From Candidatus Omnitrophota bacterium (GTDB lineage: Bacteria; Omnitrophota; Gorgyraeia; JAFGHF01), in NCBI GenBank assembly GCA_042571705.1, contig JBHPFV010000007.1, positions 1-59,097 of the forward strand: a stretch of DNA of 59,097 nt, read 5' to 3'. Positions 11,054-35,620 of this stretch are shown here, piece by piece. Every line of letters starts with the position of its first letter. Position 1 is the first letter of the stretch. The notes beneath the pieces were generated by a model, which searched no databases, was not told where the DNA came from, and saw only the letters and a list, made by a program, of their open reading frames with translations. Position numbers and translations under genes: made by a program.

Positions 11054-11222
11054 ACAATCCTTTCATGTGCGCAATTGCCGTTCTAAGCTATTGCCCTAGA
11101 CAAATGATTTTACCCTAAACTCAAACGGCTTGCAACTTCTTTTTATTATCCGTCATTTTTCCTTTTGTTTTTCATGAACTTGTGTTACAATCTCTTAACA
11201 AGCATAGAGTTAGGAGAATTGG

Positions 11223-13985
11223 ATGCTGTTAGTAATCTTTTTGCTGATTGTGGCCACAGTGGGCGCGATTGTTTATGGTTTAAGTCTGATTGATCAGCCG
11301 GATCAAGATGAACAGCAAACAGTTAAAGGCCGAAAACCTAAAACTGGCGCCTCAATCCAAGCCAAATATGATCAGTTAAAAATAGAATTTGAGGATCTGC
11401 GGAAGGAGTTATCCGCTAACTCCGGCGTCAATGATGAGTTAGAAAAGTTAAAACAGCAGCAGCAAAAAGATCAGGAAGAATTAGTTACTCTACAAAAAGA
11501 TAACTCTAACTTGAAAAGGCTGAAACAAAAAGAGCATGGAAAAGTAGAGTTTCAGCTAAACGAAAACGCCAGGATCAATAAAGAACTTTTAAAGAACGAG
11601 CAAGCCCGGGAAGAGCAGGCCGCAAAGAACTCTGAGTTACAGAACAAGATACAAGAGTTAACTAAAGAATTAGAGTTGCTGCAGGAAAAACTGACCAAGA
11701 AAAAGCCTTCCAAGAAAACTGCCGCGAAAAAAGAAACAACTCAAGAACAACCACCGCCAGAGCCTGAAAAGCCGGACCCCATCCCGGAACAACCCCAACC
11801 GGAAAAAGAAGTCAGCACCCCGCTTGAGTCTACCATTACAGAACCGCACCCGTTAAAACCGCAAGAACCAAAACCAGAGCAGCAACCTGTTGTCGAAGTA
11901 GACTTAACTAAGATCCGGAATATCGGCATCGTGGCGCATATCGATGCCGGCAAGACCACCACCACGGAAAGAATCCTCTATTTTACCGGCAAATCCCATA
12001 AAATTGGCGAAGTTCATGACGGCAAGGCCCAAATGGATTGGATGAAACAAGAACAGGAACGCGGGATTACCATCACCTCCGCGGCCACCACCTGCTACTG
12101 GAATGAAAACAGAATTAATATTATTGATACGCCCGGACATGTTGACTTTACCGCCGAAGTTGAGCGCAGCCTGCGCGTGCTTGACGGCGCGGTGGTGCTC
12201 TTCTGCGCTGTGGCCGGAGTGGAACCGCAATCCGAGACGGTCTGGCATCAGTCTAACAAATACCATGTCCCCAAGATCGCGTTTGTGAACAAAATGGACC
12301 GCACCAGCGCGGATTATTTTGCGGCCTTAAAGGACATCGAGGATAAGCTCGGGGCCAATGCTGTGCCATTAGTCATACCTTTAGGCAAAGAACGCGATTT
12401 CCGCGGCTGCATTGACCTGATCGAACTTAAGGCCTATGCCTATGATGACCCTCAAGGAAAAGATGTTACCATCATGGAGATACCTCAGGAATATCAGGAG
12501 AGCGCGGCAAAATACCGTAATATAATGATTGAGCGGGTTGCCGCGGAAGATGAGGCATTAATGAAAAAGTTCCTGGATTCTCCCGATTCCATAACCGCGG
12601 ATGAATTGCATCAGGCGATCCGCAAACGCACCATTGCTAATTCAATAGTGCCGGTGCTCTGCGGCTCCTCCTTCAAGAACAAGGGCGTGCAAAAATTACT
12701 CGACGCGGTTGCGCTATATCTACCCTCCCCTCTGGACTTACCTGCCATCAAGGGGCACGACCCCGACAATCCGCAAAACATAGTGGAGATAAAACAAGAT
12801 ATCGACCAGCCGCTTTGCGCCTTGGCCTTTAAAGTTCAGTCTGACCCACATATCGGTAAGCTTGTATACACCAGGATTTATGCCGGAGTGCTCCAGGCAG
12901 GTTCTTACGTGCTCAACCTGACCACGCAAAAAAAAGAACGGGTAGGTAGAATTCTTCAGATGCACGCCAACCAAAGAGAAATTCGCGAACAGGCCTACGC
13001 CGGTGAAATTGTCGCCCTGGTCGGCCTGACCAAGACCAAGACCGCAGACACAATCTGTGACCCTGATCATCCGGTGTTGCTGGAAAGCATGAAGTTCTCC
13101 AAGCCGGTAATCTCGGTAAGCATTGCTCCGGAAAGCAGGTCCGACCGGGACAAACTTGGTAAAGGATTGGCCCGGCTTTTAGAAGAAGACCCGACCCTAA
13201 TGGTCAAGCAAGATAAAGAAACAGAAGAAACTATTCTCTCCGGGATGGGAGAACTGCATTTGCAAATCATTGTCTCCAGATTGAAAGAAGAGTTTAAAGT
13301 GGCCGCTATCACCGGACAGCCAAAAGTCGCTTACAAAGAGACAATTTTAGAATCGGCCAGCGGTGAATATAAACATGCCAAACAGACCGGCGGTCGAGGC
13401 CAATATGGCCACGTCGTGTTTGAAATGGCGCCTCTGGAACGCGGTCAGGAATTTGAGTTTACCGATAGTATCAAAGGCGGGGCGATCCCTAAATCATATA
13501 TCCCGGCGGTAAAGAAGGGCATTCTTGAGATAATGCAAAAAGGGGTCTACGCCAAATATCCTGTAGTCGATGTCAGCGTCAATCTCGTTGATGGCTCATT
13601 TCATGAAGTCGACTCATCAGAAATAGCGTTTAAACTGGCCTCGATCGCTTGCTTTAAGCAAACCTTCCTCAAGGCCAAGCCGATACTGCTTGAGCCCTAC
13701 ATGACGCTGGAGGTCAACACCCCGGAAGATTATTTAAACAGCATTGTTGGTTATATCTGCTCGAAAAGAGGAAAGATCTTAGGCATGGACGCCAAGGGTA
13801 AGAACAAAGTAATTTCCGCGGAGGCCCCGCTGGCTGAGATGTTTGGATACGCGACCACATTTCGCTCATTGAGTAACGGCCGGGCAAACGCGACCATGGA
13901 ATTTAAAAAATATGAGCCGGTACCGAGTGAAATTATCGCAACGATTTTAGAAGAAAGCAAAAAGGAAAAGAAAGACGAAAGTTGA
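11223..13985 (+). CDS. fusA: Elongation factor G paralogue with N-terminal TM anchor, coiled coil and Pro-rich linker
   Basis: EF-G from ~aa 227 (nt ~11898): [45 protein letters not shown]; one continuous ORF; AGGAG RBS before 11223. Confidence 0.92.
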
Positions 13986-14883: not shown

Positions 14884-15039
14884 CTATCCTTTGCGCTTCG
14901 AAAAGCACTCTTTGCAGTATACCGGACGGTCTCCGCTGGGCTTAAAAGGGACTTCGCATTCTTTTTTACATTCTGCGCATGTCGCCTTGTGCATCTCTCG
15001 CGGATTCCCGCCATACCCACCACTTTGTCCAAACGCCAT
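14884..15039 (-). CDS. 51-aa CxxC-x17-CxxC zinc-ribbon protein (not in the ORF track)
   Basis: MAFGQSGGYGGNPREMHKATCAECKKECEVPFKPSGDRPVYCKECFSKRKG; AAGGAGGAGG RBS. Confidence 0.9.
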   Translation of the reverse strand: MAFGQSGGYGGNPREMHKATCAECKKECEVPFKPSGDRPVYCKECFSKRKG

Positions 15040-15075: not shown

Positions 15076-15498
15076 TTAAGCGCGTTTTTTTCTACGCGCG
15101 AAGAATGGCTCCTTTTTTTTAACGGGCTTTTGTCTTTTCTGAGGCTGCCTTTTATTTGAAAAACATTCCTTGCAATATACCGGACGGTCTGCGCTGGGCT
15201 TGAACGGAATTTCGCATTCTTTGTTGCAGTCCGCGCAAATAGCCCGAGTATAAGTTCTTTCCCTGGGACCGCTGCCTGGCCTTTCTCTGTCCTGGCGATG
15301 AGAGTGATTGAAGCGCCGGAAAGGCTTTGGGGAATAGCTTTTCTCAAAAGGCCTTTTTGAAGACTGGCTGATTAAGACATCCAGCTTCACCTCCATGGCG
15401 CTCAACTGCCGCTGCACTTTATTGATCAGGCCAGCCAGGCCCGATTCATCCCGGGCGGCTGCGGCTAATGAACTTTTACGTTTAAAACTTTTTTTCAT
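15076..15498 (-). CDS. Coiled-coil plus CxxC-x17-CxxC domain protein
   Basis: CADCNKECEIPFKPSADRPVYCKEC; basic tails. Confidence 0.85.
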   Translation of the reverse strand: MKKSFKRKSSLAAAARDESGLAGLINKVQRQLSAMEVKLDVLISQSSKRPFEKSYSPKPFRRFNHSHRQDRERPGSGPRERTYTRAICADCNKECEIPFKPSADRPVYCKECFSNKRQPQKRQKPVKKKEPFFARRKKRA

Positions 15499-21748: not shown

Positions 21749-24700
21749 ATGAAAAAACGTAGATTAATCCATATATTTTTCTTCTTGCTCTCACTCTCCT
21801 CCCTACTACTCTATCCTTCATCAGCCATATTGCTGGCCCAAGGTAATCCTCAACCACAAAAAGAAAATTTGATCACGATTAAAAATATTGAGGGCATGGT
21901 CCAGATCAAAAAAGCCGACCAGGCCGGCTGGAGCAAGGCCGCGGCCGGGGATATCCTCTCGACCAACCACAGGATCCGCACGCTGTTAGAATCACGCGCG
22001 GAGCTGGAATACTCAGACGGCTCAATCCTGACTTTAAGAGAAAACAGCATCCTGGATATCAAAGACATCTCCTACGACAAAAAGACCGGAAAACATAAAA
22101 GAGAGATAAAATTAAATTTGGGCGGGATGAAATACAAGGTCACGCCTTTGCGCGAAAAAGGCTCGGAATTTAAAATCCACTCCTCCACTGCTATCGTCGG
22201 AGTCACCGGTACCGAAGGGATCATCGCTACTGATGGTGAGGGTAAGCCAACCAGCAATATCCTGGTCGAAGGCACGACTTACAATACTGATGAAGATGGA
22301 TCAGGCGGACGCCCGTTAAAGGCCGGCAATACCTGGCTGATCGACGAAGCCGCCGAATCCGAAAAATACATGTCCACAGACGATGAAACAGACGCAGCTG
22401 AGTATGATCAGGCCGACCCGGAGCTGGCTGCCAGGTTTAATGCCTTCCTCGCCTTATTTAACCAAAAGCAGGCCCAAGGCTACATCGTCGATGAAGCTAT
22501 CCTGGAAACACTGACCCAGGCGATGCTCAACCGGGATTACCTCAGGGCCAAACAACTGCTTGATCAAGCGGAATTAAAATTAGCCGAGGCCAAAAAACCT
22601 ACTGATCCCCAGGCCCAGGAACTCAGCCAAGCGCTGGAGCTGATCAGGACAGAGTTAGCGGCAAAAGAAACCGCAGGTTATGATTTACAGGGTATCTACC
22701 TGATCTTCTATCAAAGCGAAGAAGCTTACCGGCAAGAAAAATATGCGGCTGGATTAGATCTACTCGAACAGATTAAACTCGGATTATTAAATTTAGTTAA
22801 AGCCGAAGATGATTTTCCGCAAAGACTAAACCAATTAATGGACCGGATCAGTGAAAAAGCAAAACTAGGGTTTATGGTCGAAGAGCCGATCGAACTAGCC
22901 AAAAAATCAGATCTAGCCTATCGTAATGGAGCGCGGGCTGAGGCCGAGGCACTGCTGCTTGAAGCCCGCCAAATGCTATTTCAGGCTAGACGAATAATCC
23001 CGCCGGAGCTATTAGCGGGGCTAACTAGATTAAAGGAAGAGATCTTAACTAAGAAAGCGGATGGCTTTGATATCTTAGAAATCGAAGAGCTTTTAGCCCA
23101 AGTTGATCAATTGCTGGCTCAAGGCAAATATATCGAGGCCGGGCAAATACTACGGGGAATAGAAGCAACCTTGCCTTCGTTAACCAAGACCCTGCCTAAA
23201 GAACTGGCTTATCTATTCAAGACCTTTGAGGAAAAACTGGCTAAAAAAGAGGCCATTGGATTTGATCTGACTGAATTGCAAAATTTAATTAAGTCTGTTT
23301 ATGAAGCTAAACAAGCCGGTGACCTGGAAACAATGAATGCCTTATTAACAGAAGTCTTTACTGTATTAAAACAGCTGGGACCGCCGATTGGATTAACCAA
23401 CCGGCTTAAAGAGTTTAAAGAAAAAGTTGAAGAATTAAAGGCAGCGGGTCTCTCAGCCACAGATATTGACAATCTAGCCATGCAGATCGAGGCGGCCTTA
23501 GCAAAACAAGATCTGAACCTGGTGCGCCAATTGTTAGATCAGGCCGAAGGTCTGCTAGCCTCACTTAAAGACACGGAACCGCCAACAGTTCAGGTATCCG
23601 ATTTAGAGTACAGCGAAGATTCAGTGCAGATCTCTGGTGTAGCCAGCGATAATGTCCAGGTCGACCAAGTCACTGTCAATGGCGCGCTGGCTGTATTGGA
23701 CGATACCGGATCCTTTAATAAGGAATTATTACTCACCTCTTTGCTGGCCGAGGTAATCGTCATCGCCAAAGACGCCGAAGGCAACAGCTCGCCTGAGATA
23801 ATTATCGCTATAGCTGAAGAAAAACTAAGCGCACTCACCACAGAAGATAGCGCTGCAATTCCTGAGCTTAACGCTGATCTTAGTTACAGCGAAACCGGCG
23901 TGGTAGTTACAGGAAAAACAGATCCCGGAGCGGTAGTTACTGCCGGTGAATTAAATGTAACCGCGGATAGCGCCGGGGCCTTTTCCCTGAGCCTGAACGG
24001 ATCGCCTGAATTAGTGGAAAATGGCTTAAGCTTAATCGCTTCCGCCGCAAACGGCAATAGCTCCGCTGAACTAAAACTAGATGTGGAAGATAAATGGCTA
24101 CCGGAACTAGAAGTAACAGACGTCCAGCTATATGACAATATGCCGCCTAGCTTAACCAGTGATCCCTTAAGCTACCAAGGCGAGTTAATCGAAGTAAAAG
24201 GCAAATCTGTTGACACGGCTAATATCACCATCCTGGGAAATGTGGAAGATATCGGCTCAGGAGTAGCCAGCCTGACGATCAATGGCCAAAACGCTAGCTT
24301 AGAGGCCACAGGACAATTTAAACACACCGTATTGCTCACGGCGGAATTAAAATCGATCGCGGTAGAGCTTTTGGATAAAGCCGGGAATAAAAATATCTTT
24401 TCCCGCCCGCTGGACCTATTCCTCTACCCTGCGCTGGTGACTGTAAATGACCGTGAAATTAATGTCGATGAAAATGGAAACTTTTCCACTCAGCTCACGG
24501 CTACTGTTGAGCTAACCGAAGTTCTGATCCAGTCTAAAGATAAATTAGGAAACGAAACTACTCCGCTTAAGCTAATGGTTGTTGATAGGATTGCTCCGGA
24601 AATAAGCTTAGGCGATATCCAATACGAAATTGATTCTGTGCAGATTAGCGGTCAAACTGAACCGGACTCGCTTTTATCGGATACCAGCGGGGCTTTATTC

Positions 24701-27700
24701 CAAGATAATCTCCCTGTAGAGGCATCCGGTTTATTTACCATAACAATCCCCCGGCCAAAAAGCAATTTGACCGGGACATTGGTAGCCCAGGATGCTTCCG
24801 GAAATACCTCTGCAGGCATCGCGGTTACCATCGAGGCCTTAACAGATGAAAAACCGCCTCAACTGAGCGTAGCTAATCTGATTCTTAGAGCGGGTTTGGT
24901 AATTGTCTCGGGCGTAGTCGAAGATGATACGGGAATCGAATCTGTAACAGTCAATAACCAAGCAGTCGAGCTCACCGGCAACGCCTTTTACAAAGAACTT
25001 ACGCTTTCAGCCGATTTGGTAAAAGTAGTGGTAGTAGCCACTGATTTATCCGGTAAAACCGCGACTGTTGAGCAGGTGACCAAAGATGATCTCCCTCCTA
25101 CTCTGACCTTGGCCGACTTAAGCTATGAAGAGGGTTATTGTCTGGTTCAGGGAACGGCAACCGACAACCTGGGCTTAAAAGAAGTAAGAGTAAATAATAT
25201 ACCTATAGATATAGCCCTGCCGGCTGGAGGAGAGTTTGAATATAAGTTGGCCCTAACCGCGGGGTTAGAAAATGTGGTTGTTTCGGCTATTGATTTATAT
25301 GGTAACTATCAGGAAACCGAACCAAAAGAGATAGTCCCGCCGCTGGATCGTGTTGCTCCTATCCTCACTCTTAACGAACTAACTTATGGCAGCCCCACGG
25401 CAATTGTATCCGGAACAGTTACTGACAACATCGGACTAAGATCAGTGCTGATTAATGATCAGCCGATTGATTTTTATGAGGACGGCTCGTTTAAACTAGA
25501 GTTGGATATCACCATTGGATTACCCGAGGCCACACTAAATAACGCTATTTACGACGCTGAGTTCGTAATCATCTCCGGCACAGTAAATCTGCCCAGCCAA
25601 ACCCCTAGTCAAGTAAAAGCCATAGCCGAAGACTTAGCCGGAAATAAAAGCATGGAAATAAAAAGGGAGGTCAACGCCCTGAACCTTGAGGAATATAAAG
25701 TTACAGTTAATGGCTCAGCGGTTGATTTAGAAAATGGGGCTTTTAGAAGTGAATTAATCCTGGAACAAGGCCTGGATACTGTAGCGGTCCTGGTCTATGA
25801 TTCTCTGGGCCGCGTTTCTGAAGAGCTCAAGGTTCCTATAGAAACCACCCCTCCTATTCTTGAGGTAAATCAAGAAACTTACGCCGGAGATACCGTGACC
25901 GTGTCCGGAAAAGCCAGCGATGAGCTTTCCGGTTTAGACGAAATATTAATTAATAATACCTCTATTGATTTTTCCGGCGACGGCGCATTTTCACAAACAT
26001 TACCGATCTCCGAATCCACGGTCACTATAGTGGCCTTGGATAGAGCAGGTAACATGACCGGCTCGATACCGATAACAGTCTCGCCGCCCGATACAGCGCC
26101 GCCACTATTTGTGGTCGGACTGAATCCGGTACCGGCTACTATTGGGAATGATCTGAGCGTAACTATTGATGTCTTAGACAGCAAGACCCGGCAGCCGGAA
26201 ATGTTAGACGGTACACCTGTAGTCAACGCTGTTCTTTCTGACGGTCAAGTTAAGCCCATCGAGATCTCCGGTTCCGGCGCATCATTCTATGGCGCTCTTT
26301 CAACAACCGGCCTGCCTACAGGACTGATTACTTTAACAGTCGAAGGTAAAGATACATCCGGCAACCTGGGTAATGTAAAAGAAGGGCTGGATAATGTCTT
26401 ATTAAATACAATTGATACCAGCGCGCCCAGCTTTAGCGTCAGTCTAACTCCCGCTCCACCTGCTTTCGTAGGGGCCGAGGTTACAGTAAATGCCGCCTCC
26501 AGTGAAACCCTGAAATCCTTACCCAACGGTACGCTGACATTACCGGATGGGATCAGTTTTGAATTCGCCCTGGAAGGCGCTCTCAGCGGCACAAGCTTTA
26601 CCTCCAATTTATCCATCCCGGCTGAGACCATCCCCGGGACAGCTACGCTTAACCTGACTGAGGCGGTGGACCTGGCGGATAATGCGCAAACTTCGCCTAC
26701 TGTTTTTAGTTTTGAGATCGAGCCGGAAGAGGTTGCCGCCAGTCTTCCTTTAAGAATAGAATTCTCTGAAATCACTAATGATCGCATAGCAGTTAAAGGT
26801 CTGAGCAGCCCGCAGGCAATCATCCATATCACGCTGGGAGAAATCAAGGCCGACATCCCCGCTGATGACAATGGGTTGTTCCATTTTATAAAACCTCTCT
26901 TAAGTGAAGACTTAGAATTGATGAGGACATTAGGCGCTTCGATCTTGCTTGATTGTCATGCCACTAACTATGCCGGGCTGATCTCCGAAAAGATCAGTCT
27001 GAATATACCCTTGCCTGCCGCTATTGCGGAGACTAGAGGCGGTGAGAATTTCCTCATCGATATCTCTCCTTACCCGATCGAACAAGGACAAACTGCCCAG
27101 TTTGACATCACTTCACGCCGAGGGCTTCGGGAAGCGCCGAACGTAAGTATCAGATTGAGTAATGGCCGCACAGAGCTGGTGAATATTACCGGTTCAGGCC
27201 GACAATTCCAGGGAATCTATCAATCAACACCGGCCACAGCAATCGGCCCGGCTATTATCCAGATCAAAAGTGAGGATATTTTTGAATCCCGTCCTGGCCT
27301 GATTGTTCCTTCTTCCGAAACCTATGCGGCCATGGCCGGTTCAGGATTTTTTACAATCATCGCCAATCCGGATCCTTTGCCGATGGGAAAAGAATTGGAT
27401 GTTTCCATCACCGCGGAGCGCGCGATAAAGAAAACTCCCAGCTTAGAGATCAGACTGCCCAATGGCAGATTAGACCAGATCATTGTATCAGGAGAAGGCT
27501 CGCAGTTTAACGGAAAATATCTCTGTCCTCAAGATATCCATCCCGGACCGGCGGAGCTAATCGTAAATATGGGTCAACGCAGCGAATCCCGGCGTCCTTT
27601 TGGTATCGCTCCTCCTTATGGTAGAAGGACTCGCGAAGGTGATGTGTTCACATTTTCCAATCCCCGGCCTATGGCTACAGGCAGCTCAGCCACAGTCACT

Positions 27701-30700
27701 GTAAAATCCCGGCACCCCTTAGAAGAAATACCTGGCGCGCAGCTGCTCACCAGCGCTGGCAAGCTTATTCCTATCGAACTCAGCGGCAGCACTCCGGGTC
27801 ATCTATTCAATGCCACAATAGAAATATCCAGTGAGGTAAGTTTGGGGCCGGCGGTAATCATTATCAAAGATCAGGAAGGCAATATCCTTGATGAACATCC
27901 TACAGAAATCACTCCCGGGTTTGGCGCGGCGGATATGGAAGTAGAGGCATTGATGGTCCCTTCACCGGCTACGCCCAATCAAGTAGTAATGATCAATGTA
28001 AACTCTTTGGGTAAAGAACTTAATTTTAGGCCGCGGGGAAAACTGATTTTCTCAGACGGTTTAATCACGCCTTTGAATCTGGAAGGGCCGATACCGGCAA
28101 TGCAATTCAGGACCCCAATAACAATACCGCAAACCGCATCCTTGGGTCCGGTAAACATAATGATTCTCGATGCAGCCGGCCTGCCTATTGGCGGAGGTCA
28201 AGCTTACATCTCCAGGACTCAGCGCGGTGGCGGTTCCGGTGAGCTAAAGGTGTCAGTGATGCCTCCCAATCCTCTGCCGGGTGACCCCTTAGAGGTTTCC
28301 ATATCTTCAGATGCCAGCTTGCAATCTATCAGATGCGCTTTAGAAGTACCTGGGAAAGGGCCTCAGGATATTCGCTTAGAGGGTCCGATACCCGGAAATA
28401 GATTTAGAGCGAATATCTCGTTCCCTCGCGATGCCCAACCTCGAGGTTCAAGAATAGACGTGTTCTTTGATCGCGGGGCCGGCGAAGAAACACAAAGCTT
28501 CTTCCTCGAAGGCCGACATCACGAAGGAGGAGGTCACCGGCCGCCTGAACTAAACCCCTTCCCTCCTATGCCCGGAAAGCCCCTGGTGATCACTCTACAT
28601 GCGCCTTTCATAATGGACTTCGCGCCCAGCGTCAGAGTAAATTACATAACCGGCAATGAGTCATTAGCTACTAACGGCCCGATACCCGGAGACAGATTTA
28701 CCGGAACTTTACCTAATGTAGCCATGGCGGTAACATCGATCGATGTCTTAGGTCCCGGAGGTGAATTGTTAGTCAATCTACCTATTGAAATGCTGGGCGG
28801 CAGGCATGATGCGCCGCATATACAAATTATGCCCTTACCTTTAATGCCTGGCTCCCCGGCAAACCTGAGGCTGGAATTCCCTAGGCAGGTTTACAGTCTG
28901 CCAACAGCAAGCATAAAATTAGAAACCGGCCGGATGGTCCCGATAACTTTAACCGGTCCGATCCCCGGCAGCATGTTTACGGGCATGTTCAGCATTCCCC
29001 ACGATACTTCGTTCGGTCCGGCAAACTTAGAAGTTTATATCGATAACCAGCTTGTGCCCGGCGGCACCATGCCGGTCAATATCGGAGACAGCGGCCCTGT
29101 TAGCGGTGATCTTTTGGCCTTAATGATCTTCCCGGGAGCGCCGGGAGAATTAAATATAGATTGGCACCTCTTGCCTAGGGCAGAAAGACATAAAATAGAA
29201 TGTCAGGCCCCGGGATTACCTAAAAAGACATTTGACGCCGGCAGGAGGAGTCATTATTTTGTAACAGGCTTGGAGGCCGACAGCGAATATAAAGTAACAG
29301 TCATCGCCTTTGACAGCAGGCGTAGAGAAATTACCCGTTCAGAGTATTATATCCGAACCATCAGCTCAGCCTATGGCGGCCAGGGTTTTCCCCTTTATGT
29401 TCACCCTTCCGGACCGGGAAACCTGCAAATAAACTGGGACCATCAACCAGGCGTGCTAAGTTATAATCTCTTCTACGTCCAGGGAGCTAATGACCCATTA
29501 ACTCAAACACCGCACCCGGCAGGTAATGCCACAAGTTATCATTTATATGAGTTGGCTGCCGGGCAATATCAAATTCAGGTAGAAGCAATGCTCTCAACAG
29601 GCGAGACAATGCTCAGTGAAATCAGAACAGAATATGTCAGCAGTGATTTTGATTATGGCCGGCCTCCTGTAGAGCTACATCCCTATCCGCCTATAACCGG
29701 ACAACCTTTAGATATTGATGTGCTGCTTCCGATGACAATTCCTGTTCTGCCCAGTGTAAAAGCCCAATACGCCACTGCCGGTGAAGACGCCTTTACCATG
29801 TCCGGGCCCCTGCCGGGCTCTAGCTTCCACGGGACCCTGGCCTCAGTAAAAGATACGATTACCGCGATAAATTTCTATGACCCGATCAGCGGCGGAATGA
29901 AACATTCCCATCCGATTGGCGGGGATTTGTATTATGATATTACACCATATGACCTCTGGGTCAGAATCAGCGTAGATCCTGAGCCAGCTGTAGGCACTGA
30001 GACAAGTATTAATCTTGATTTCAACCAAGAAGTTGATTTTCAACACGCGGGGTTAAGACTGCTGGTAGGTTTTGTGGGTGGCCGAGAAATTGAGATACCT
30101 GTATCTAGTTCCGGCCCGCAAATGAGCTATCAGGCTATGCTAAGCGCGACCCAGCATAGCGAAACCATAGAAACGATCGGCATAGAAGGTTCCCGAGGCA
30201 TGGTCCCTGAAGAATATATCAACACCCAGGCCAGCGGTGGAATTACCGCCACGCTCTCGATCACGCCTGATCCGCCAATAATGGGTACAAATACACAAAT
30301 TCAAGTCAGTATAGCTGACGCTGGCACGTATCAACCGCGCAATATAGATTCGCTTCCTGCGGTCGGCGTAGATCTTGCTAGCGGCACGATGTGGGAATTA
30401 ACTGCCAATGGATCATTGCCGGGTTCTGAGTTTTCCGCTGAACTAACTCAAGCTATGTTCACTGCCCCTATTGAGTTAATTGACGTAGAGTATAATGGCG
30501 TGCTTATTGCCAGCAAGACTTTTGTTGTCGAAGGTGGCCCGGTTACATTTGGCCCGATGTTCTATCCCGATCCTCCGCAAACCGGACAGCCGTTAAACTT
30601 GAATCTGGATATTCCTCCCGATGAACCACCCATGTCTGGATTCCCTGAGGTCAAGATTAATTACGCCTCAGGCACAACTCCAGCAAGTGAATATATGGAA

Positions 30701-33700
30701 ATCAGCGGCGCGCTTCCCGGCCGGCATTTCAATGGATTACTGCCTGAGGTCAAAGGGCCAATTGTATCCGCGGACTTCATTAATCCCCTGACCGGTACCA
30801 TAGAACACACTTATTATTTTACCGCTGGATCTACGGATTACGCTGGCGGCACAATTGATGTCGCGCCTAATGATCCGCCATTAGCCGATACTGCAATTGA
30901 GATAACTTACCATGCTGATCGCACAGTCTATCAACGGCCGATCATCGAGATCCACTACCTCGACAATTCAATGGAAGTTTTTGATGGCCTGGGTCCTGTT
31001 CCGGGCATGACCTTCAATGTATCTCAATATATTACAAAACAAGTCACGCGCATCGAGGCCTGGAACCTCCAACATTCCTTAATATTCGCTAGTAGACATT
31101 TTGCGCATCCCGGAGGCGAGGGCGCAGGTGCAATTGCCGTTGCCCCTGATCCACATTATCCGCCTACAACAGTAGCTATACAGGCAACTACAGACTATGT
31201 TCAATCAAATTTCCCATTCTTAAAGATATTCTACTGGGACAATAGCTTAGAAACTGTGACCCTTGCAGGAGATCTACCCGGTACTTCATTTAGCGTAGAA
31301 CATTACATTACAAAGGATATAGAAAGAATCGAGCTTTTGAGTTCCGGCCAGGCCCAGCTTGCTGTGCGTTACTTTCATGATGGGCCAGATGCAGGTGAAG
31401 GCACAATTGCCATTAGTCCTGATCCTGCTTACGCAAATACTACAGTTACTATTAATGTAACTACTGATAATTCGCAACCAGGCCTGCCGATACTCAAAAT
31501 ATTTTATTCTGATAACACTGTGGAAAGTACTCCTCCTGTTCTTACGGGAGAACTACCAGGGACTTTTTTCACTGTAGATTATTACACCTTAAAAACCATA
31601 GTCCGAATCGAAGCCTTGACCCCAAGCTTAACTAATGTAATTGCCGCCCGCGATTTTTATGATGACGATGGTGGTCAAGATTTCGGACCTACGTTTACTC
31701 CTGACCCACCTGTGGTTGGTGAACCATTATCGATGGTATTAGAGCTAGACCCTAACGAACCGCCGATATACGGTTATCCAATAGTGCGGATAAATTATGT
31801 TTCCGGAACATCTCCGGAGAGCGAAGACATGCAAGTCTCCGGCGCTGTACCGGGACGGTACTTTGAGGGTTATTTATCCGAGGTAAAAGGCCTGGTGGAA
31901 ACTGCTGAATTTATCGACCCAATCTCAGGATCCACAGAACATACGCATTACTTTGTCGAAGGAATTATGTCGTCGTTGGTAGATGCTTCTGTGACACTCA
32001 CTATTTCTCCTGATCCGCCGATATTCGGAGATAGTCTGGAGGTCACCGTAACTACTACACCTGCCGTACGCACACCGATTATAGAAATAATTTATCTAGA
32101 TGGAGATGTGTTTGAGCCGGTTGTTTCCGGAGCAGATCCGGGAATGAACTTTACTGCCACATTAAGTGAACTGACCAAACCCATAGACAAAATTGAACTT
32201 CTCTCAGGAATGAATGATCCTCAACCGGATGAACTTGTGGAAACATTTTACCTCAATCTGGGCAGCCTGCCCTATCCAACAAATGTTTGGTTAGAAGCAG
32301 GTGGTCTACCTACTGAGGTATTTGTAAACTGGGATAGTGTTTCTGAAGCCGATGGTTATTTTATATATTATAGCCTTTCCGAAGATCCCTTCCACTCATC
32401 CGACTACGTACAGGTGTTTGAAAAGAACATTACCAGAGAGATAGTCAGCGGGCTTTCCAGTGGTGAGACTTATTATTTTGTTGTTAGCGCCTACGCCAAT
32501 GACGGCCGGGAAAGCGGCTTTGACATGGAAGAATCATGGGTGATTGGTTCAGGAACCGCGGGTGAAGGCTCACTCACCCTGCTGAGCCCCGCTCCTTTGG
32601 GCGACTTTGGCGAGATTGACTTTGACAATGTCACGCAAGGCACGACATCAGACAGCGAGACTATTACAATTCAAAATACAGGCACCAGCACCGCTACAAT
32701 TAGAGCCTTCGGCGGAACATTGCTCAATGTCTTAAATCCCGAAGACACTATCCCGGCCAGCAACGTCAATTTTACAGATGGTTACACCATCGCCCCATCC
32801 GGCAGCGAATCCCGGTCAATCACTGTCAGCGTACCATCAGGGACTCCTTCGGGAGATTATCTGAGTGTCCCCGGAAACAGGTTAATACTCTATGATGATA
32901 TCAATGGAAACGGTTCCTTAGATAGCGGTGAGAGTTTTGTCAAGATTGAGCTGCGAGTTACTGTTGGTGTTGAAGGGTTGGATGCGCAGGAGTCCGGCGT
33001 AATGTTTGATGTCACCGCTCCGGGCACAACCACCGCTACCAAGACAATCCATGTAGAGAATACCTCCGGCGGCACCTTAGCGAATATCCAGCTAGAAACC
33101 AACACGTTATATAAACAAGGGAATTTTTCACAGACTATTTCCTCTTCCAACATAATATTTAGTCTTAATTCCGCGGTTGCCGGGACCTTGGGGGTCGGTG
33201 AAACCACAAGTTCATCGATTTATGTCTCTGTCCCCGCGAATACTATAGCCGGTGACTACGGCGGGGCAATGGTAATCTATAATGATACTAACTACAATTC
33301 TTCGCGTGATAACGATGAGCCTTTTGTCAGTGTTTTAATGATGGTACCTGTAAGCGGCTCACCCGATATTGGCAATCTCAGCGCCGTTAACCGCGGCACC
33401 GGCGGCACCGTCGATCTGACCTGGACTGATTCAGATACAACTACCGACCACTATCATGTTTATTATAGAACCTCTGCTGAATCACATGTCTGGGGCTCAC
33501 CGGATGAGCATACATTTGACAAGGCCTTTCAAGTTACCGGATTAACTGATAATACTGCTTATTATTTTGTAGTCCGGGCCGCGAATAGCACTTGTACTGA
33601 AGATACAAATACAACCGAGGTCTCGGCCACCCCGACAACATCAGGAGCTGATATTACGCCTCCTACATTCGCTGGAATCGCTTCCGCCTTTGGTAATGGC

Positions 33701-35620
33701 GAATATGGCCAGGTAGTGATAGAATTTTTCTCAGCCTCGGACGCCAGCACCCCCATTTCCTACTCGGCTTACTACGGAACGGATCCTAATACTATTTTCG
33801 ATAATACCCCGGTTAGCGTAACGCCGTCCTCCCACTTAATACTTTCCTTACAGGATGGCACGACCTACTATTTTGCGGTCCGGGCCAAAGATTATTATAA
33901 CAACGAAGAAAAAAATACGCGCATTGAAACAGCCATACCTTATGGTTCAGCCGACCATATTGCCATCACCTCTGAAGCTTCCTCAAGCGCTGTAGGCAGC
34001 CCGGTCTTGGTAAAAGTTACGGCCTATTCTTCCGCTGATAACTCAACGGTAGATACCTCTTTTACGGATTCTGTTAAGGTCTATATAGAAGAGGCCATAG
34101 ATTATGGACAACCCCGCTGCATAGTCTCTCTGCAGGATAGAGTCAGCGATGATCAGGCTGAAGTGGCCATGGTTGCCGGCGAGGGGTATTTCACAATAGA
34201 TGCGGTGGAGACAACAACGGTCGAAATATTTGCAATAGGACTGCCCACTAACACGCTAAGCATAGATTTTACCGGCGCTGCAGGATCAGGCATCGATCAG
34301 TTCGCGATAGAAGGAGCCTCTTCAGCTATGACCGGCACCGACACTAATGATGGCGCCCTAATCTGGATCAGCGCGCTTGATTCAACAGGAAAAGTACTCG
34401 ATCAATATTTAGGGGAAATCGACATTACTGTAAGTGGCGCTGGATCACCGCAGCTATGGAGAGACGGTTCTCAAGTATCTGGCAGTTCTCCATATCGAGT
34501 AACTTACACTACAGGTGAAAACAGCGAAATGAAGTTATACCTAAAGAATGCTGTATCCGGATCGTTCACAGTCAGCGCCGAAGAAGTTATTAACACTGAT
34601 CACGACTCAAACGATTTCTCGGTAAGTTTTTATGGAGTTGATGGTTATCTTTTGGAGTCAGCCGGACAATACACCATCAGCGCTGAGACCATCGGCAGCC
34701 GGATCAAGTGGACCGCCTATTCAGTAAATAATAGTGACACACCGCTCAGTGGTTACAATGGCCAGGCCGAGATGGTCACACTCAGTGGTGACGATAACAA
34801 TAGCGCTATGGTCATACCTTCGACAATACAATTTGTCAACGGTATCGCTGAATTCTATGTCGAAAATTCTGAATATGAGACCGTAACCTTCAAAATACAA
34901 GATATCAGCGATAATCTTATAGATAGCGACAATGCTTATGCTACCTTTACCTCGACTGATACTGAGGGACCTGACTTAATTAGAGTGGAAGCGGAAACGC
35001 CGTTTTTGCTCCATCTCTATTTCTCTGAAGCGATAGACTCCGATAGCGCCTTTAACAAAAATAACTACGGTAATGCCGTAACAGCTGGAAATATAGATAA
35101 GATCTGCTGGTATGAAGATGAAGTAACACTACACTTAGGCGCCAGCCTAAATTTAGGTCAAGGTTATACTCTAACCGTTTATGGTACATCTGGTGACGAG
35201 ATCAAAGACGGAGAAGGCAATTATATGGGAGGAGATCAAAGTAAGGATTTCACCGTCCCCAATGTTGACTATCAGGGCTCAAGTTACGGTGGAGGAGATT
35301 GGCTAGAGATCCAGGTCTCTCCTGCCAACCTGCCCACTGGATCTGAACAAACTGTTCATGTCATCGTCTATCATAAGAATGCCTGTGGATACTTAACCGG
35401 CGCCAACGCGATTAACCGCTCGGAGGATGTCTCCGGCATCACTCTCGTTTATGGCGGCGACGACCAGAGAATCATCACTAAACCTTCCAGTAGCTCAATG
35501 GGCAATGGAGTTTGCGAATTTGATATCACTATCGACTTCGATAACTCGGATGAATCTGTCACTATCACCGCCGAAGCAGGAAATGTCACTTCAGGCGAAG
35601 CCACTATCGAGGCCAACTAA
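21749..35620 (+). CDS. Giant (4623 aa) exported protein: signal peptide, FecR domain, helical repeats, many Ig-like/Fn3 domains
   Basis: Sec signal; FecR-like RIRT..SRAELEYSDGSILTLRENS..STAIVGVTGT; ~60-aa helical repeats; DTxPP..DxAGN Ig repeats; Fn3 (W..Y..GL....Y.F.V.A); DxNxNG Ca-binding-like loops. Confidence 0.85.
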   Translation: MKKRRLIHIFFFLLSLSSLLLYPSSAILLAQGNPQPQKENLITIKNIEGMVQIKKADQAGWSKAAAGDILSTNHRIRTLLESRAELEYSDGSILTLRENSILDIKDISYDKKTGKHKREIKLNLGGMKYKVTPLREKGSEFKIHSSTAIVGVTGTEGIIATDGEGKPTSNILVEGTTYNTDEDGSGGRPLKAGNTWLIDEAAESEKYMSTDDETDAAEYDQADPELAARFNAFLALFNQKQAQGYIVDEAILETLTQAMLNRDYLRAKQLLDQAELKLAEAKKPTDPQAQELSQALELIRTELAAKETAGYDLQGIYLIFYQSEEAYRQEKYAAGLDLLEQIKLGLLNLVKAEDDFPQRLNQLMDRISEKAKLGFMVEEPIELAKKSDLAYRNGARAEAEALLLEARQMLFQARRIIPPELLAGLTRLKEEILTKKADGFDILEIEELLAQVDQLLAQGKYIEAGQILRGIEATLPSLTKTLPKELAYLFKTFEEKLAKKEAIGFDLTELQNLIKSVYEAKQAGDLETMNALLTEVFTVLKQLGPPIGLTNRLKEFKEKVEELKAAGLSATDIDNLAMQIEAALAKQDLNLVRQLLDQAEGLLASLKDTEPPTVQVSDLEYSEDSVQISGVASDNVQVDQVTVNGALAVLDDTGSFNKELLLTSLLAEVIVIAKDAEGNSSPEIIIAIAEEKLSALTTEDSAAIPELNADLSYSETGVVVTGKTDPGAVVTAGELNVTADSAGAFSLSLNGSPELVENGLSLIASAANGNSSAELKLDVEDKWLPELEVTDVQLYDNMPPSLTSDPLSYQGELIEVKGKSVDTANITILGNVEDIGSGVASLTINGQNASLEATGQFKHTVLLTAELKSIAVELLDKAGNKNIFSRPLDLFLYPALVTVNDREINVDENGNFSTQLTATVELTEVLIQSKDKLGNETTPLKLMVVDRIAPEISLGDIQYEIDSVQISGQTEPDSLLSDTSGALFQDNLPVEASGLFTITIPRPKSNLTGTLVAQDASGNTSAGIAVTIEALTDEKPPQLSVANLILRAGLVIVSGVVEDDTGIESVTVNNQAVELTGNAFYKELTLSADLVKVVVVATDLSGKTATVEQVTKDDLPPTLTLADLSYEEGYCLVQGTATDNLGLKEVRVNNIPIDIALPAGGEFEYKLALTAGLENVVVSAIDLYGNYQETEPKEIVPPLDRVAPILTLNELTYGSPTAIVSGTVTDNIGLRSVLINDQPIDFYEDGSFKLELDITIGLPEATLNNAIYDAEFVIISGTVNLPSQTPSQVKAIAEDLAGNKSMEIKREVNALNLEEYKVTVNGSAVDLENGAFRSELILEQGLDTVAVLVYDSLGRVSEELKVPIETTPPILEVNQETYAGDTVTVSGKASDELSGLDEILINNTSIDFSGDGAFSQTLPISESTVTIVALDRAGNMTGSIPITVSPPDTAPPLFVVGLNPVPATIGNDLSVTIDVLDSKTRQPEMLDGTPVVNAVLSDGQVKPIEISGSGASFYGALSTTGLPTGLITLTVEGKDTSGNLGNVKEGLDNVLLNTIDTSAPSFSVSLTPAPPAFVGAEVTVNAASSETLKSLPNGTLTLPDGISFEFALEGALSGTSFTSNLSIPAETIPGTATLNLTEAVDLADNAQTSPTVFSFEIEPEEVAASLPLRIEFSEITNDRIAVKGLSSPQAIIHITLGEIKADIPADDNGLFHFIKPLLSEDLELMRTLGASILLDCHATNYAGLISEKISLNIPLPAAIAETRGGENFLIDISPYPIEQGQTAQFDITSRRGLREAPNVSIRLSNGRTELVNITGSGRQFQGIYQSTPATAIGPAIIQIKSEDIFESRPGLIVPSSETYAAMAGSGFFTIIANPDPLPMGKELDVSITAERAIKKTPSLEIRLPNGRLDQIIVSGEGSQFNGKYLCPQDIHPGPAELIVNMGQRSESRRPFGIAPPYGRRTREGDVFTFSNPRPMATGSSATVTVKSRHPLEEIPGAQLLTSAGKLIPIELSGSTPGHLFNATIEISSEVSLGPAVIIIKDQEGNILDEHPTEITPGFGAADMEVEALMVPSPATPNQVVMINVNSLGKELNFRPRGKLIFSDGLITPLNLEGPIPAMQFRTPITIPQTASLGPVNIMILDAAGLPIGGGQAYISRTQRGGGSGELKVSVMPPNPLPGDPLEVSISSDASLQSIRCALEVPGKGPQDIRLEGPIPGNRFRANISFPRDAQPRGSRIDVFFDRGAGEETQSFFLEGRHHEGGGHRPPELNPFPPMPGKPLVITLHAPFIMDFAPSVRVNYITGNESLATNGPIPGDRFTGTLPNVAMAVTSIDVLGPGGELLVNLPIEMLGGRHDAPHIQIMPLPLMPGSPANLRLEFPRQVYSLPTASIKLETGRMVPITLTGPIPGSMFTGMFSIPHDTSFGPANLEVYIDNQLVPGGTMPVNIGDSGPVSGDLLALMIFPGAPGELNIDWHLLPRAERHKIECQAPGLPKKTFDAGRRSHYFVTGLEADSEYKVTVIAFDSRRREITRSEYYIRTISSAYGGQGFPLYVHPSGPGNLQINWDHQPGVLSYNLFYVQGANDPLTQTPHPAGNATSYHLYELAAGQYQIQVEAMLSTGETMLSEIRTEYVSSDFDYGRPPVELHPYPPITGQPLDIDVLLPMTIPVLPSVKAQYATAGEDAFTMSGPLPGSSFHGTLASVKDTITAINFYDPISGGMKHSHPIGGDLYYDITPYDLWVRISVDPEPAVGTETSINLDFNQEVDFQHAGLRLLVGFVGGREIEIPVSSSGPQMSYQAMLSATQHSETIETIGIEGSRGMVPEEYINTQASGGITATLSITPDPPIMGTNTQIQVSIADAGTYQPRNIDSLPAVGVDLASGTMWELTANGSLPGSEFSAELTQAMFTAPIELIDVEYNGVLIASKTFVVEGGPVTFGPMFYPDPPQTGQPLNLNLDIPPDEPPMSGFPEVKINYASGTTPASEYMEISGALPGRHFNGLLPEVKGPIVSADFINPLTGTIEHTYYFTAGSTDYAGGTIDVAPNDPPLADTAIEITYHADRTVYQRPIIEIHYLDNSMEVFDGLGPVPGMTFNVSQYITKQVTRIEAWNLQHSLIFASRHFAHPGGEGAGAIAVAPDPHYPPTTVAIQATTDYVQSNFPFLKIFYWDNSLETVTLAGDLPGTSFSVEHYITKDIERIELLSSGQAQLAVRYFHDGPDAGEGTIAISPDPAYANTTVTINVTTDNSQPGLPILKIFYSDNTVESTPPVLTGELPGTFFTVDYYTLKTIVRIEALTPSLTNVIAARDFYDDDGGQDFGPTFTPDPPVVGEPLSMVLELDPNEPPIYGYPIVRINYVSGTSPESEDMQVSGAVPGRYFEGYLSEVKGLVETAEFIDPISGSTEHTHYFVEGIMSSLVDASVTLTISPDPPIFGDSLEVTVTTTPAVRTPIIEIIYLDGDVFEPVVSGADPGMNFTATLSELTKPIDKIELLSGMNDPQPDELVETFYLNLGSLPYPTNVWLEAGGLPTEVFVNWDSVSEADGYFIYYSLSEDPFHSSDYVQVFEKNITREIVSGLSSGETYYFVVSAYANDGRESGFDMEESWVIGSGTAGEGSLTLLSPAPLGDFGEIDFDNVTQGTTSDSETITIQNTGTSTATIRAFGGTLLNVLNPEDTIPASNVNFTDGYTIAPSGSESRSITVSVPSGTPSGDYLSVPGNRLILYDDINGNGSLDSGESFVKIELRVTVGVEGLDAQESGVMFDVTAPGTTTATKTIHVENTSGGTLANIQLETNTLYKQGNFSQTISSSNIIFSLNSAVAGTLGVGETTSSSIYVSVPANTIAGDYGGAMVIYNDTNYNSSRDNDEPFVSVLMMVPVSGSPDIGNLSAVNRGTGGTVDLTWTDSDTTTDHYHVYYRTSAESHVWGSPDEHTFDKAFQVTGLTDNTAYYFVVRAANSTCTEDTNTTEVSATPTTSGADITPPTFAGIASAFGNGEYGQVVIEFFSASDASTPISYSAYYGTDPNTIFDNTPVSVTPSSHLILSLQDGTTYYFAVRAKDYYNNEEKNTRIETAIPYGSADHIAITSEASSSAVGSPVLVKVTAYSSADNSTVDTSFTDSVKVYIEEAIDYGQPRCIVSLQDRVSDDQAEVAMVAGEGYFTIDAVETTTVEIFAIGLPTNTLSIDFTGAAGSGIDQFAIEGASSAMTGTDTNDGALIWISALDSTGKVLDQYLGEIDITVSGAGSPQLWRDGSQVSGSSPYRVTYTTGENSEMKLYLKNAVSGSFTVSAEEVINTDHDSNDFSVSFYGVDGYLLESAGQYTISAETIGSRIKWTAYSVNNSDTPLSGYNGQAEMVTLSGDDNNSAMVIPSTIQFVNGIAEFYVENSEYETVTFKIQDISDNLIDSDNAYATFTSTDTEGPDLIRVEAETPFLLHLYFSEAIDSDSAFNKNNYGNAVTAGNIDKICWYEDEVTLHLGASLNLGQGYTLTVYGTSGDEIKDGEGNYMGGDQSKDFTVPNVDYQGSSYGGGDWLEIQVSPANLPTGSEQTVHVIVYHKNACGYLTGANAINRSEDVSGITLVYGGDDQRIITKPSSSSMGNGVCEFDITIDFDNSDESVTITAEAGNVTSGEATIEAN

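Follow-up and report, generated by a model that had tools for sequence, protein, structure and literature searches.

Can a core translation factor be built into the membrane of a bacterium? The question is raised by a locus in a 59,097-nucleotide (nt) stretch of DNA from Candidatus Omnitrophota bacterium (assembly GCA_042571705.1, contig JBHPFV010000007.1), called here the window, in which positions 11223-13985 (+) form a single unbroken open reading frame (ORF) of 920 amino acids (aa), with no stops. A preliminary description of this locus, made from its letters, had recognized an elongation factor G (EF-G) preceded in the same frame by a hydrophobic N-terminus, a coiled coil and a proline-rich spacer, and had suggested a membrane-tethered factor, with export of the EF-G part as the alternative. 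From the analysis given here, the product is predicted to be a bitopic inner-membrane protein composed of a hydrophobic helix, a dimeric coiled coil, a disordered linker of about 65 residues and a complete EF-G in the cytoplasm. Proteins of this build are referred to below as long forms, and the part ahead of EF-G as the module; G, C and L numbers designate genomes, contigs and loci, respectively, and statements taken from the literature refer to the available text of the cited sources.

Recurrence of the fusion

A search with the whole protein in 41 genomes of the same class returned frames of 1006-1102 aa in five of them (G036, G028, G040, G012 and G026), all of which align with the window protein from about residue 50 through to the end. 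The N-terminal parts of six long forms align as helix, lysine/arginine (K/R) patch, coiled coil and acidic/proline spacer, and the first ATG stands directly at the hydrophobic helix in all six long forms examined, the window's included. A profile of the module matched 90 of the 401 genomes of a class sample (E <= 1e-5), with an open frame of 923-1158 aa in 40 of these, namely the window's own genome (923 aa) and 39 others with 990 aa or more; searching the same sample with a short EF-G paralogue (see below) led to the same 40 frames, with a closely related EF-G. When two peptide patterns of the stalk were scanned against one genome per species (GTDB 232), 74 loci were found, comprising 64 full fusions (999-1079 aa), four cut by the contig end, three that run off the contig before EF-G and three that stand alone. 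The two samples overlap, as both use species representatives. The check proposed in the preliminary description, a search of EF-G homologues for the same N-terminus, has therefore come out in favor of the fusion, both in the class genomes (40/401) and in the scan (64/74 loci).

Nearly all records found by the scan are titled Candidatus Omnitrophota or Omnitrophica, the others being some 'uncultured Planctomycetales' or 'Planctomycetia', one Margulisiibacteriota and a few named only 'bacterium'. In a 401-genome sample of the phylum, every genome with a module match at E <= 1e-8 (149/149) belongs to the same class or is the window's own. Protein collections gave less. The N-terminal 229 aa of the window protein had no match at E <= 1e-5 in a word-index search, and the N-terminal part of the G036 protein retrieved only seven proteins by such a search, all 1004-1062 aa long and with EF-G Pfam domains, one of them named simply 'elongation factor G'. 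A 65-row module profile run against 1.84 billion representatives had 413 matches at E <= 1e-3, 224 at 1e-10 and 72 at 1e-30; only one protein of about 1040 aa is present among the 150 matches listed, many of which may be gene fragments from short contigs, and the full fusions probably lie under ordinary EF-G cluster representatives. This last search was not used for counts of fused versus stand-alone modules. With the fusion found again, in frame, in dozens of diverged genomes, the window ORF is confirmed as one conserved gene and not an assembly artefact.

Identity and intactness of the EF-G part

The preliminary description had reported a complete EF-G with its GTPase motifs, the switch II sequence DTPGH and the domain IV loops, and family models bear this out. 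Five Pfam domains follow one another along the window protein (GTP_EFTU 230-502, EF-G_D2 530-613, EFG_III 625-698, EFG_IV 700-819 and EFG_C 822-905), and TIGR00484, the NCBIfam equivalog model of EF-G, scores 998 bits (cut-off 659), its positions 4-690 of 691 being aligned with aa 225-913. The alignment with Thermus thermophilus EF-G (1efg) is gap-free from end to end (824 bits). The G1, DTPGH and NKxD motifs and both domain IV loops are kept in 66/66 long forms, a set in which the window protein and L172, a frame of 990 aa that a contig end cuts short, are added to the 64 full fusions, and residues Q721, G723, G724, G726, Q727, Y728, H730, H794, V796, D797, S798 and S799 are invariant in 67 aligned long forms. 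By these marks the EF-G head is intact and active-looking.

Other translational GTPases were considered and rejected. The spdEFG1 type is distinguished by a three-residue 'KDG' insertion in switch I (PMC3150367), and switch I of the window protein aligns with 1efg without an insertion. The scores for EFG II/EF-G2 (NF009377, 501 bits against a cut-off of 890; NF058620, 489 against 1000), for a tetracycline ribosomal protection protein (NF012153, 376 against 775) and for LepA (185 against 534) all fall short of their cut-offs. The str-type proteins and the short and long forms all score 945-1075 bits with TIGR00484, which places them, as judged by family models, within EFG I in the scheme of PMC3150367 as far as its available text sets it out.

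The membrane anchor, the stalk and the spacer

The hydrophobic N-terminus, the coiled coil and the proline-rich spacer are recovered in frame by hydropathy, by an AlphaFold2 model and in the relatives, as the preliminary description had them. An alignment of 67 long forms underlies the model, which has a mean predicted local distance difference test (pLDDT) score of 80.3, with helices at residues 2-22, 43-65 and 68-158, disorder at 24-40 and 160-217, and a confident EF-G. The best 19-residue hydropathy stretch starts at residue 2 (Kyte-Doolittle mean 2.78); no K/R stands before the helix and four stand in the 20 residues past this stretch. Over the 66 proteins, the median hydropathy of the best 19-residue stretch is 2.51, and the mean number of K/R is 0.08 ahead of the helix versus 4.7 in the 20 residues past it. 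According to the positive-inside rule, K/R found only on the C-terminal side of the helix imply an N-out/C-in orientation, and hence a cytoplasmic EF-G part, so that hydropathy and charge counts predict a reverse signal anchor. Of the two topologies left by the preliminary description, the charge distribution thus favors the cytoplasmic EF-G and speaks against export.

Two copies of residues 1-165, modelled together, reached an interaction prediction score from aligned errors (ipSAE) of 0.47, against 0.01 for the best control, and so passed a mark that is also passed by 20 of 30 proteins solved as pairs and by 1 of 23 solved as single chains. Contact agreement between runs was at least 84%, the partner had a pLDDT of at least 76, and the contacts run in register with heptad spacing over aa 42-160, which supports a parallel dimeric stalk at the level of the model. 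By arithmetic, the stalk would reach about 17 nm with its 118 coiled-coil residues, to which the spacer of 65 residues would add slack of up to about 20 nm.

Across the lineage, the extension ahead of EF-G measures 237-395 aa. In the model of a typical member (G036), a helix at 44-192 is followed by a kink at the conserved SEWVP, a second helix at 197-237 and a disordered tail. Residues W97, K122, E123, F130, S192, W194, P196 and F200 (A4 numbering) are near-invariant in the stalk outside the window copy, which does not match the conserved motifs KR.EW, KEKEL..F.KNV and SEWVPK.EF..LN.EY.ELE; the window stalk is the most divergent, with a deletion of about 90 aa, and is still matched by the module profile (E 7e-32). 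The spacer varies in length among the relatives, and is conserved among the long forms in composition and not in sequence.

Origin within the EF-G family

The window's assembly (1.88 Mb in 73 contigs, 89% complete) holds two EF-G-like genes, the window gene and one on contig C24 (G000:C24:1769-3793; L002:1495-3552), which encodes 686 aa, has NF009381 as its best model (911 bits) and is, by that score, EFG II-like; it sits between fmt and yebC/ruvC (here and below, names of neighboring genes were read from translations). Neither rpsG nor tuf was found anywhere in this 89%-complete assembly, so that the str operon evidently belongs to its missing part, and the canonical fusA, to judge from the absence of rpsG and tuf, probably with it. 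Ribosomal-protein and EF-Tu/EF-G genes have been placed in hypervariable regions of Omnitrophota genomes by a June 2026 preprint (10.64898/2026.06.07.730766), a location that might explain why the str operon is poorly assembled in the window genome. In relatives with a long form, a fusA of about 700 aa, some 52-54% identical to the query, adjoins tuf. Upstream of the window gene lies a gene for a 249-aa membrane protein and downstream of it one for a DUF481 protein, both read from the other strand; being unrelated and oppositely oriented, they put the window gene outside the str operon and, together with the fusA beside tuf in relatives, uphold the earlier view of an extra copy.

A tree of 46 rows, from which duplicate or non-EF-G loci (L001, L003-L005, L011 and L036-L038) and frames below 560 aa were left out, divides the EF-G genes of the class into three groups: one EFG II-like, one of str type and one, with a Shimodaira-Hasegawa-like approximate likelihood ratio test (SH-aLRT) support of 100, formed by the long forms and four short ones. 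In a tree of 109 rows, which cover 68 long forms with the window's among them, 24 short forms out of 49 and 17 chosen str-type rows but no EFG II rows, a single branch sets off each of the long, short and str classes (SH-aLRT 77.6, 93 and 100, respectively); since every architecture keeps to its own side, a single ancient fusion suffices. The grouping of the window copy with the 68 long rows has moderate support, as given by the 77.6. The trees thus place the long forms as sister to a short paralogue of about 700 aa and apart from the fusA of the str operon; the EF-G part is 61-72% identical to this short paralogue. In the 401-genome class sample, the short form occurs in 49 genomes, the long form in 40 and both in 10, and the two stand in tandem in G026 (L039, G026:C12) and, in the opposite order, in G399 (G399:C3:90019-95671). 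The anchored EF-G is thus a lineage of long standing that has been maintained separately, and within the reach of the searches it is restricted to a single class of Omnitrophota.

Expression signals and surroundings of the window gene

The coordinates of the features are collected in Table 1. Of the two expression signals named in the preliminary description, the AGGAG ribosome-binding site stands, 6 nt from the ATG, whereas the extended -10 element holds as a motif and not as part of a two-hexamer promoter: a consensus scan called no such promoter on the + strand, and TGTTACAAT therefore stays a motif match only. The description was also right that the EF-G boundary has neither a ribosome-binding site nor a start. 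Within codons 14-236 an in-frame ATG, GTG or TTG occurs only twice, as TTG97 and TTG152; the candidate after these, GTG237, falls within the first strand of the G domain, just ahead of the G1 (P-loop) motif. Because both TTG codons lack an upstream Shine-Dalgarno-like motif and GTG237 is inside the G domain, internal initiation of a soluble EF-G is unlikely.

Table 1. Features of the anchored EF-G gene and its upstream signals in the window
Feature	Position	Strand	Basis or remark
Extended -10-like motif TGTTACAAT	11183..11191	+	Motif match only
AGGAG Shine-Dalgarno-like motif	11212..11216	+	Spacing to ATG 6 nt
Whole ORF, membrane-anchored EF-G paralogue (predicted)	11223..13985	+	920 aa plus stop; same frame kept in relatives
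Hydrophobic helix, aa 2-22, predicted single-pass anchor, N-out/C-in	11226..11288	+	Kyte-Doolittle and AlphaFold2 helix
Juxtamembrane linker, aa 23-42, acidic then basic (KGRKPK), disordered	11289..11348	+	pLDDT <50 at aa 24-40
E/K/Q-rich coiled-coil stalk, aa 43-158	11349..11696	+	AlphaFold2 helices and two-copy model
Disordered spacer, aa 159-224, basic then acidic/Pro-rich	11697..11894	+	pLDDT ~33 at aa 160-217; composition
Complete EFG I-type EF-G (G/G', II, III, IV, V), aa 225-920	11895..13982	+	Pfam, TIGR00484, AlphaFold2, 1efg alignment
G domain with G' insert, aa 230-502: G1 AHIDAGKT, switch II DTPGH, NKMD	11910..12728	+	Pfam
Domain IV, aa 700-819, tip loops GGRGQYGH and HEVDSS	13320..13679	+	Pfam

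The GC content of the gene (0.476) is near that of the genome (0.454), and composition therefore shows no sign of recent transfer. The window copy lies outside the neighborhood usual for the fusion (pheT, a rarA-like ATPase, the gene itself and cyclophilin/uvrD), the rarA-like gene being absent from the window, and each of its flanking proteins is matched in one of five same-family genomes, on different contigs. Two adjacent small ORFs at 14884-15039 (-) and 15076-15498 (-) have in common a C-terminal treble-clef zinc-finger motif (...CxxC...PVYCKECF...), and the longer of them, at 15076-15498 (-), matches PF23477. Very long frames are also present: the window holds, at 21749-35620 (+), an ORF of 4623 aa (4652 aa from stop to stop) with FecR, Big_6, Glucodextran_B and fn3 domains, and the genome (G000) has stop-to-stop frames of 33,204, 12,185, 9,432, 6,065 and 5,491 aa on contigs C1, C16, C22, C37 and C38.

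Proposed function and alternatives

We infer that the gene encodes a membrane-anchored additional EF-G, for translocation or recycling, that acts on ribosomes near the membrane, a function to which we give about an even chance. Held by the anchor, one or two functional EF-G heads would stay no more than a few tens of nm from the membrane, where they would engage the ribosomal factor site as EF-G normally does and spend GTP on translocation and/or on recycling dependent on the ribosome recycling factor (RRF). The local supply of the factor would be raised for ribosomes translating at the membrane, and the soluble EF-G of the str operon would keep doing the bulk of the work. A ribosome-bound structure exists of an EF-G whose N-terminus carries the N-domain of protein L9 (4WPO; PMC4990484), which indicates that a fusion at this point is compatible with factor binding.

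Several observations weigh against this proposal. The topology draws on hydropathy and charge counts, and the dimer score is the model's own confidence. The window stalk is the shortest of the 66, the G1 motif being reached after 237 aa where the median is 342, and is without the tryptophan and the SEW..P..EF..LN.EY.ELE positions that are nearly invariant elsewhere. The module was found in none of the other genomes of the window's own family (0/9). In the genus g99, three of the five genomes examined keep only an anchor-stalk-spacer gene of 294-353 aa (L073 in G195, L080 in G255 and L077 in G211) and have a single EF-G each, also without an EFG II-like gene, the retained gene being found in G195 and G255 at the rarA...cyclophilin-uvrD locus; the two genomes with the fusion (L095/G113 and L096/G297) carry three EF-G genes each. 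By gene content the anchored lineage is thus accessory and dispensable. Furthermore, since the class is rich in stand-alone homologues of the module (about 220-270 aa) that lie away from EF-G, the anchor-stalk module may have a function of its own; in several families these homologues lie beside aminotransferase-like, dCMP-deaminase-like and response regulator genes. Finally, the neighbors at the 64 fusion loci, where a rarA-like ATPase lies immediately upstream in 48, with pheT in 38, uvrD in 20 and cyclophilin in 17, point to neither secretion or membrane insertion nor giant genes, and offer no functional lead. Loci with a stand-alone module are L084-L094 and L097-L099 (for example L084:4042-4740 and L087:4106-4780).

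A more specific form of the proposal, in which the dimeric anchored EF-G is a spatially dedicated elongation branch for co-translational insertion or secretion, including that of the very long membrane or secreted proteins for which the phylum is known, goes further than we would and is, in our judgment, unlikely. We are equally doubtful of a ribosome tether, in which the EF-G head is not a catalytic factor but a handle that holds or parks ribosomes at the membrane, for their localization, partitioning or silencing in very small cells. Such a tether would have the same architecture as the anchored factor proposed above, a two-headed dimeric stalk suits it well, and the near-invariant stalk residues outside the window copy suggest a specific binding surface and not a plain spacer. 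A mere handle, however, would be expected to lose the GTPase and domain IV tip residues, which are kept in all 66 proteins, and the EF-G part is still close to the short paralogue, by the identities given above.

Two further explanations appear improbable to us. The protein could be a membrane-stored reserve, inactive or restricted while anchored, from which a protease would free a soluble EF-G under some condition by cutting the spacer. The long disordered spacer present in all long forms suits this idea, and EF4/LepA is thought to be stored at the membrane and released under stress (PMC5207388), yet no protease site or partner was identified, the spacer is conserved in its composition alone, and 10 of the 40 long-form genomes have a soluble short paralogue anyway. 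Alternatively, the anchor-stalk part could be the functional core, an envelope- or division-related coiled coil that acquired EF-G to sense or regulate the state of translation, the fusion in the window perhaps drifting. In line with this, the module occurs in 90/401 class genomes, only 40 of which have frames of at least 900 aa, it outlives the loss of the EF-G part in g99, and the window stalk is shortened and divergent. On the other hand, the module matches no known family: against Pfam, neither it nor its stand-alone homologues reached any family above threshold (coiled-coil noise only), and against the Atlas only generic look-alikes with low recognition were found; moreover, the EF-G of the long forms is as well conserved as that of the short ones, and there are no stops in the full-length frames.

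Some Omnitrophota are host-dependent, and the N-terminal hydrophobic segment could in principle be a signal peptide for a surface or exported EF-G, moonlighting or serving as an epibiont effector, but the missing positive n-region (0.08 K/R), the K/R past the helix (4.7 in 20 aa) and a hydrophobic run of about 20 residues are the marks of a reverse signal anchor, and outside the cell the enzyme would be without GTP and ribosomes, so that we regard export as very remote. An error of assembly or sequencing that joined a membrane coiled-coil gene to fusA, for which it speaks that both parts occur as separate genes in some genomes, is practically dismissed by the 64 independent full fusions of 999-1079 aa, the open frame in 40/401 class genomes, the separate EF-G lineage formed by the long forms and the boundary residues, which line up with the start of the short paralogue once its Met is left out.

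Comparison with known systems and significance

The preliminary description had taken EF-G and EF-G2 proteins to be soluble, which agrees with the literature: no description of an anchored EF-G was found in the available text of the papers searched. In the available text of a survey of translational GTPases (PMC4342817) and of a survey of EF-G (PMC12172202), a term search for 'transmembrane', 'membrane', 'N-terminal extension' and 'coiled' found nothing, and in that of the June 2026 Omnitrophota preprint (10.64898/2026.06.07.730766) EF-G appears only as cargo of hypervariable regions and 'membrane-anchored' is used only for giant proteins. A second EFG I-type EF-G outside the str operon, beside the copy within it, is known from Pseudomonas aeruginosa, where EF-G1B has this position (PMC3832671; PMC3150367) and labor is divided between EF-G1A and EF-G1B, in translocation and recycling (PMC3832671). 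Those two proteins are soluble and of about 700 aa, unlike the lineage of Omnitrophota, which has 237-395 aa of anchor, coiled coil and spacer and diverged anciently within one class. EF4/LepA is likewise a membrane-associated translational GTPase of the EF-G superfamily (PMC5207388), but it has no domain IV and, in the available text of that source, no integral anchor is described for it, whereas the window protein has a predicted transmembrane helix and a full EF-G. The L9-EF-G chimera (4WPO; PMC4990484) resembles the fusion in carrying a protein on the N-terminus of EF-G with the factor site still bound by the chimera; it is, however, a construct engineered for crystallography and tethered to a ribosomal protein, while the Omnitrophota fusion is natural and its predicted tether is the membrane.

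Bitopic N-out/C-in tethers are exemplified by ZipA, whose globular domain is cytoplasmic, and by TolA, whose bulk is periplasmic. The window protein in its predicted build is like ZipA in having an N-terminal anchor, a charged helical or flexible linker and a C-terminal cytoplasmic globular domain; no sequence relationship to ZipA or TolA was found (the module matches a 'TolA-like' cluster of the Atlas at 0.91, with low recognition), and the cargo in Omnitrophota is a translation factor. The enzyme itself is therefore ordinary, and it is its anchoring that is apparently undescribed, an architecture that the pipeline label 'elongation factor G' hides.

An integral-membrane EF-G lineage across many families of a phylum would be, if true, an example from nature of a core translation factor on a tether, and it makes testable whether the local supply of factors limits translation at the membrane, a question that is sharper for very small cells making enormous membrane or secreted proteins. 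It also offers a natural design for the tethering of EF-G, with an anchor, a coiled coil of 17-28 nm and a flexible linker. Should the reading of a dedicated elongation branch be true, the supply of a translation factor would be compartmentalized in a bacterium without internal organelles.

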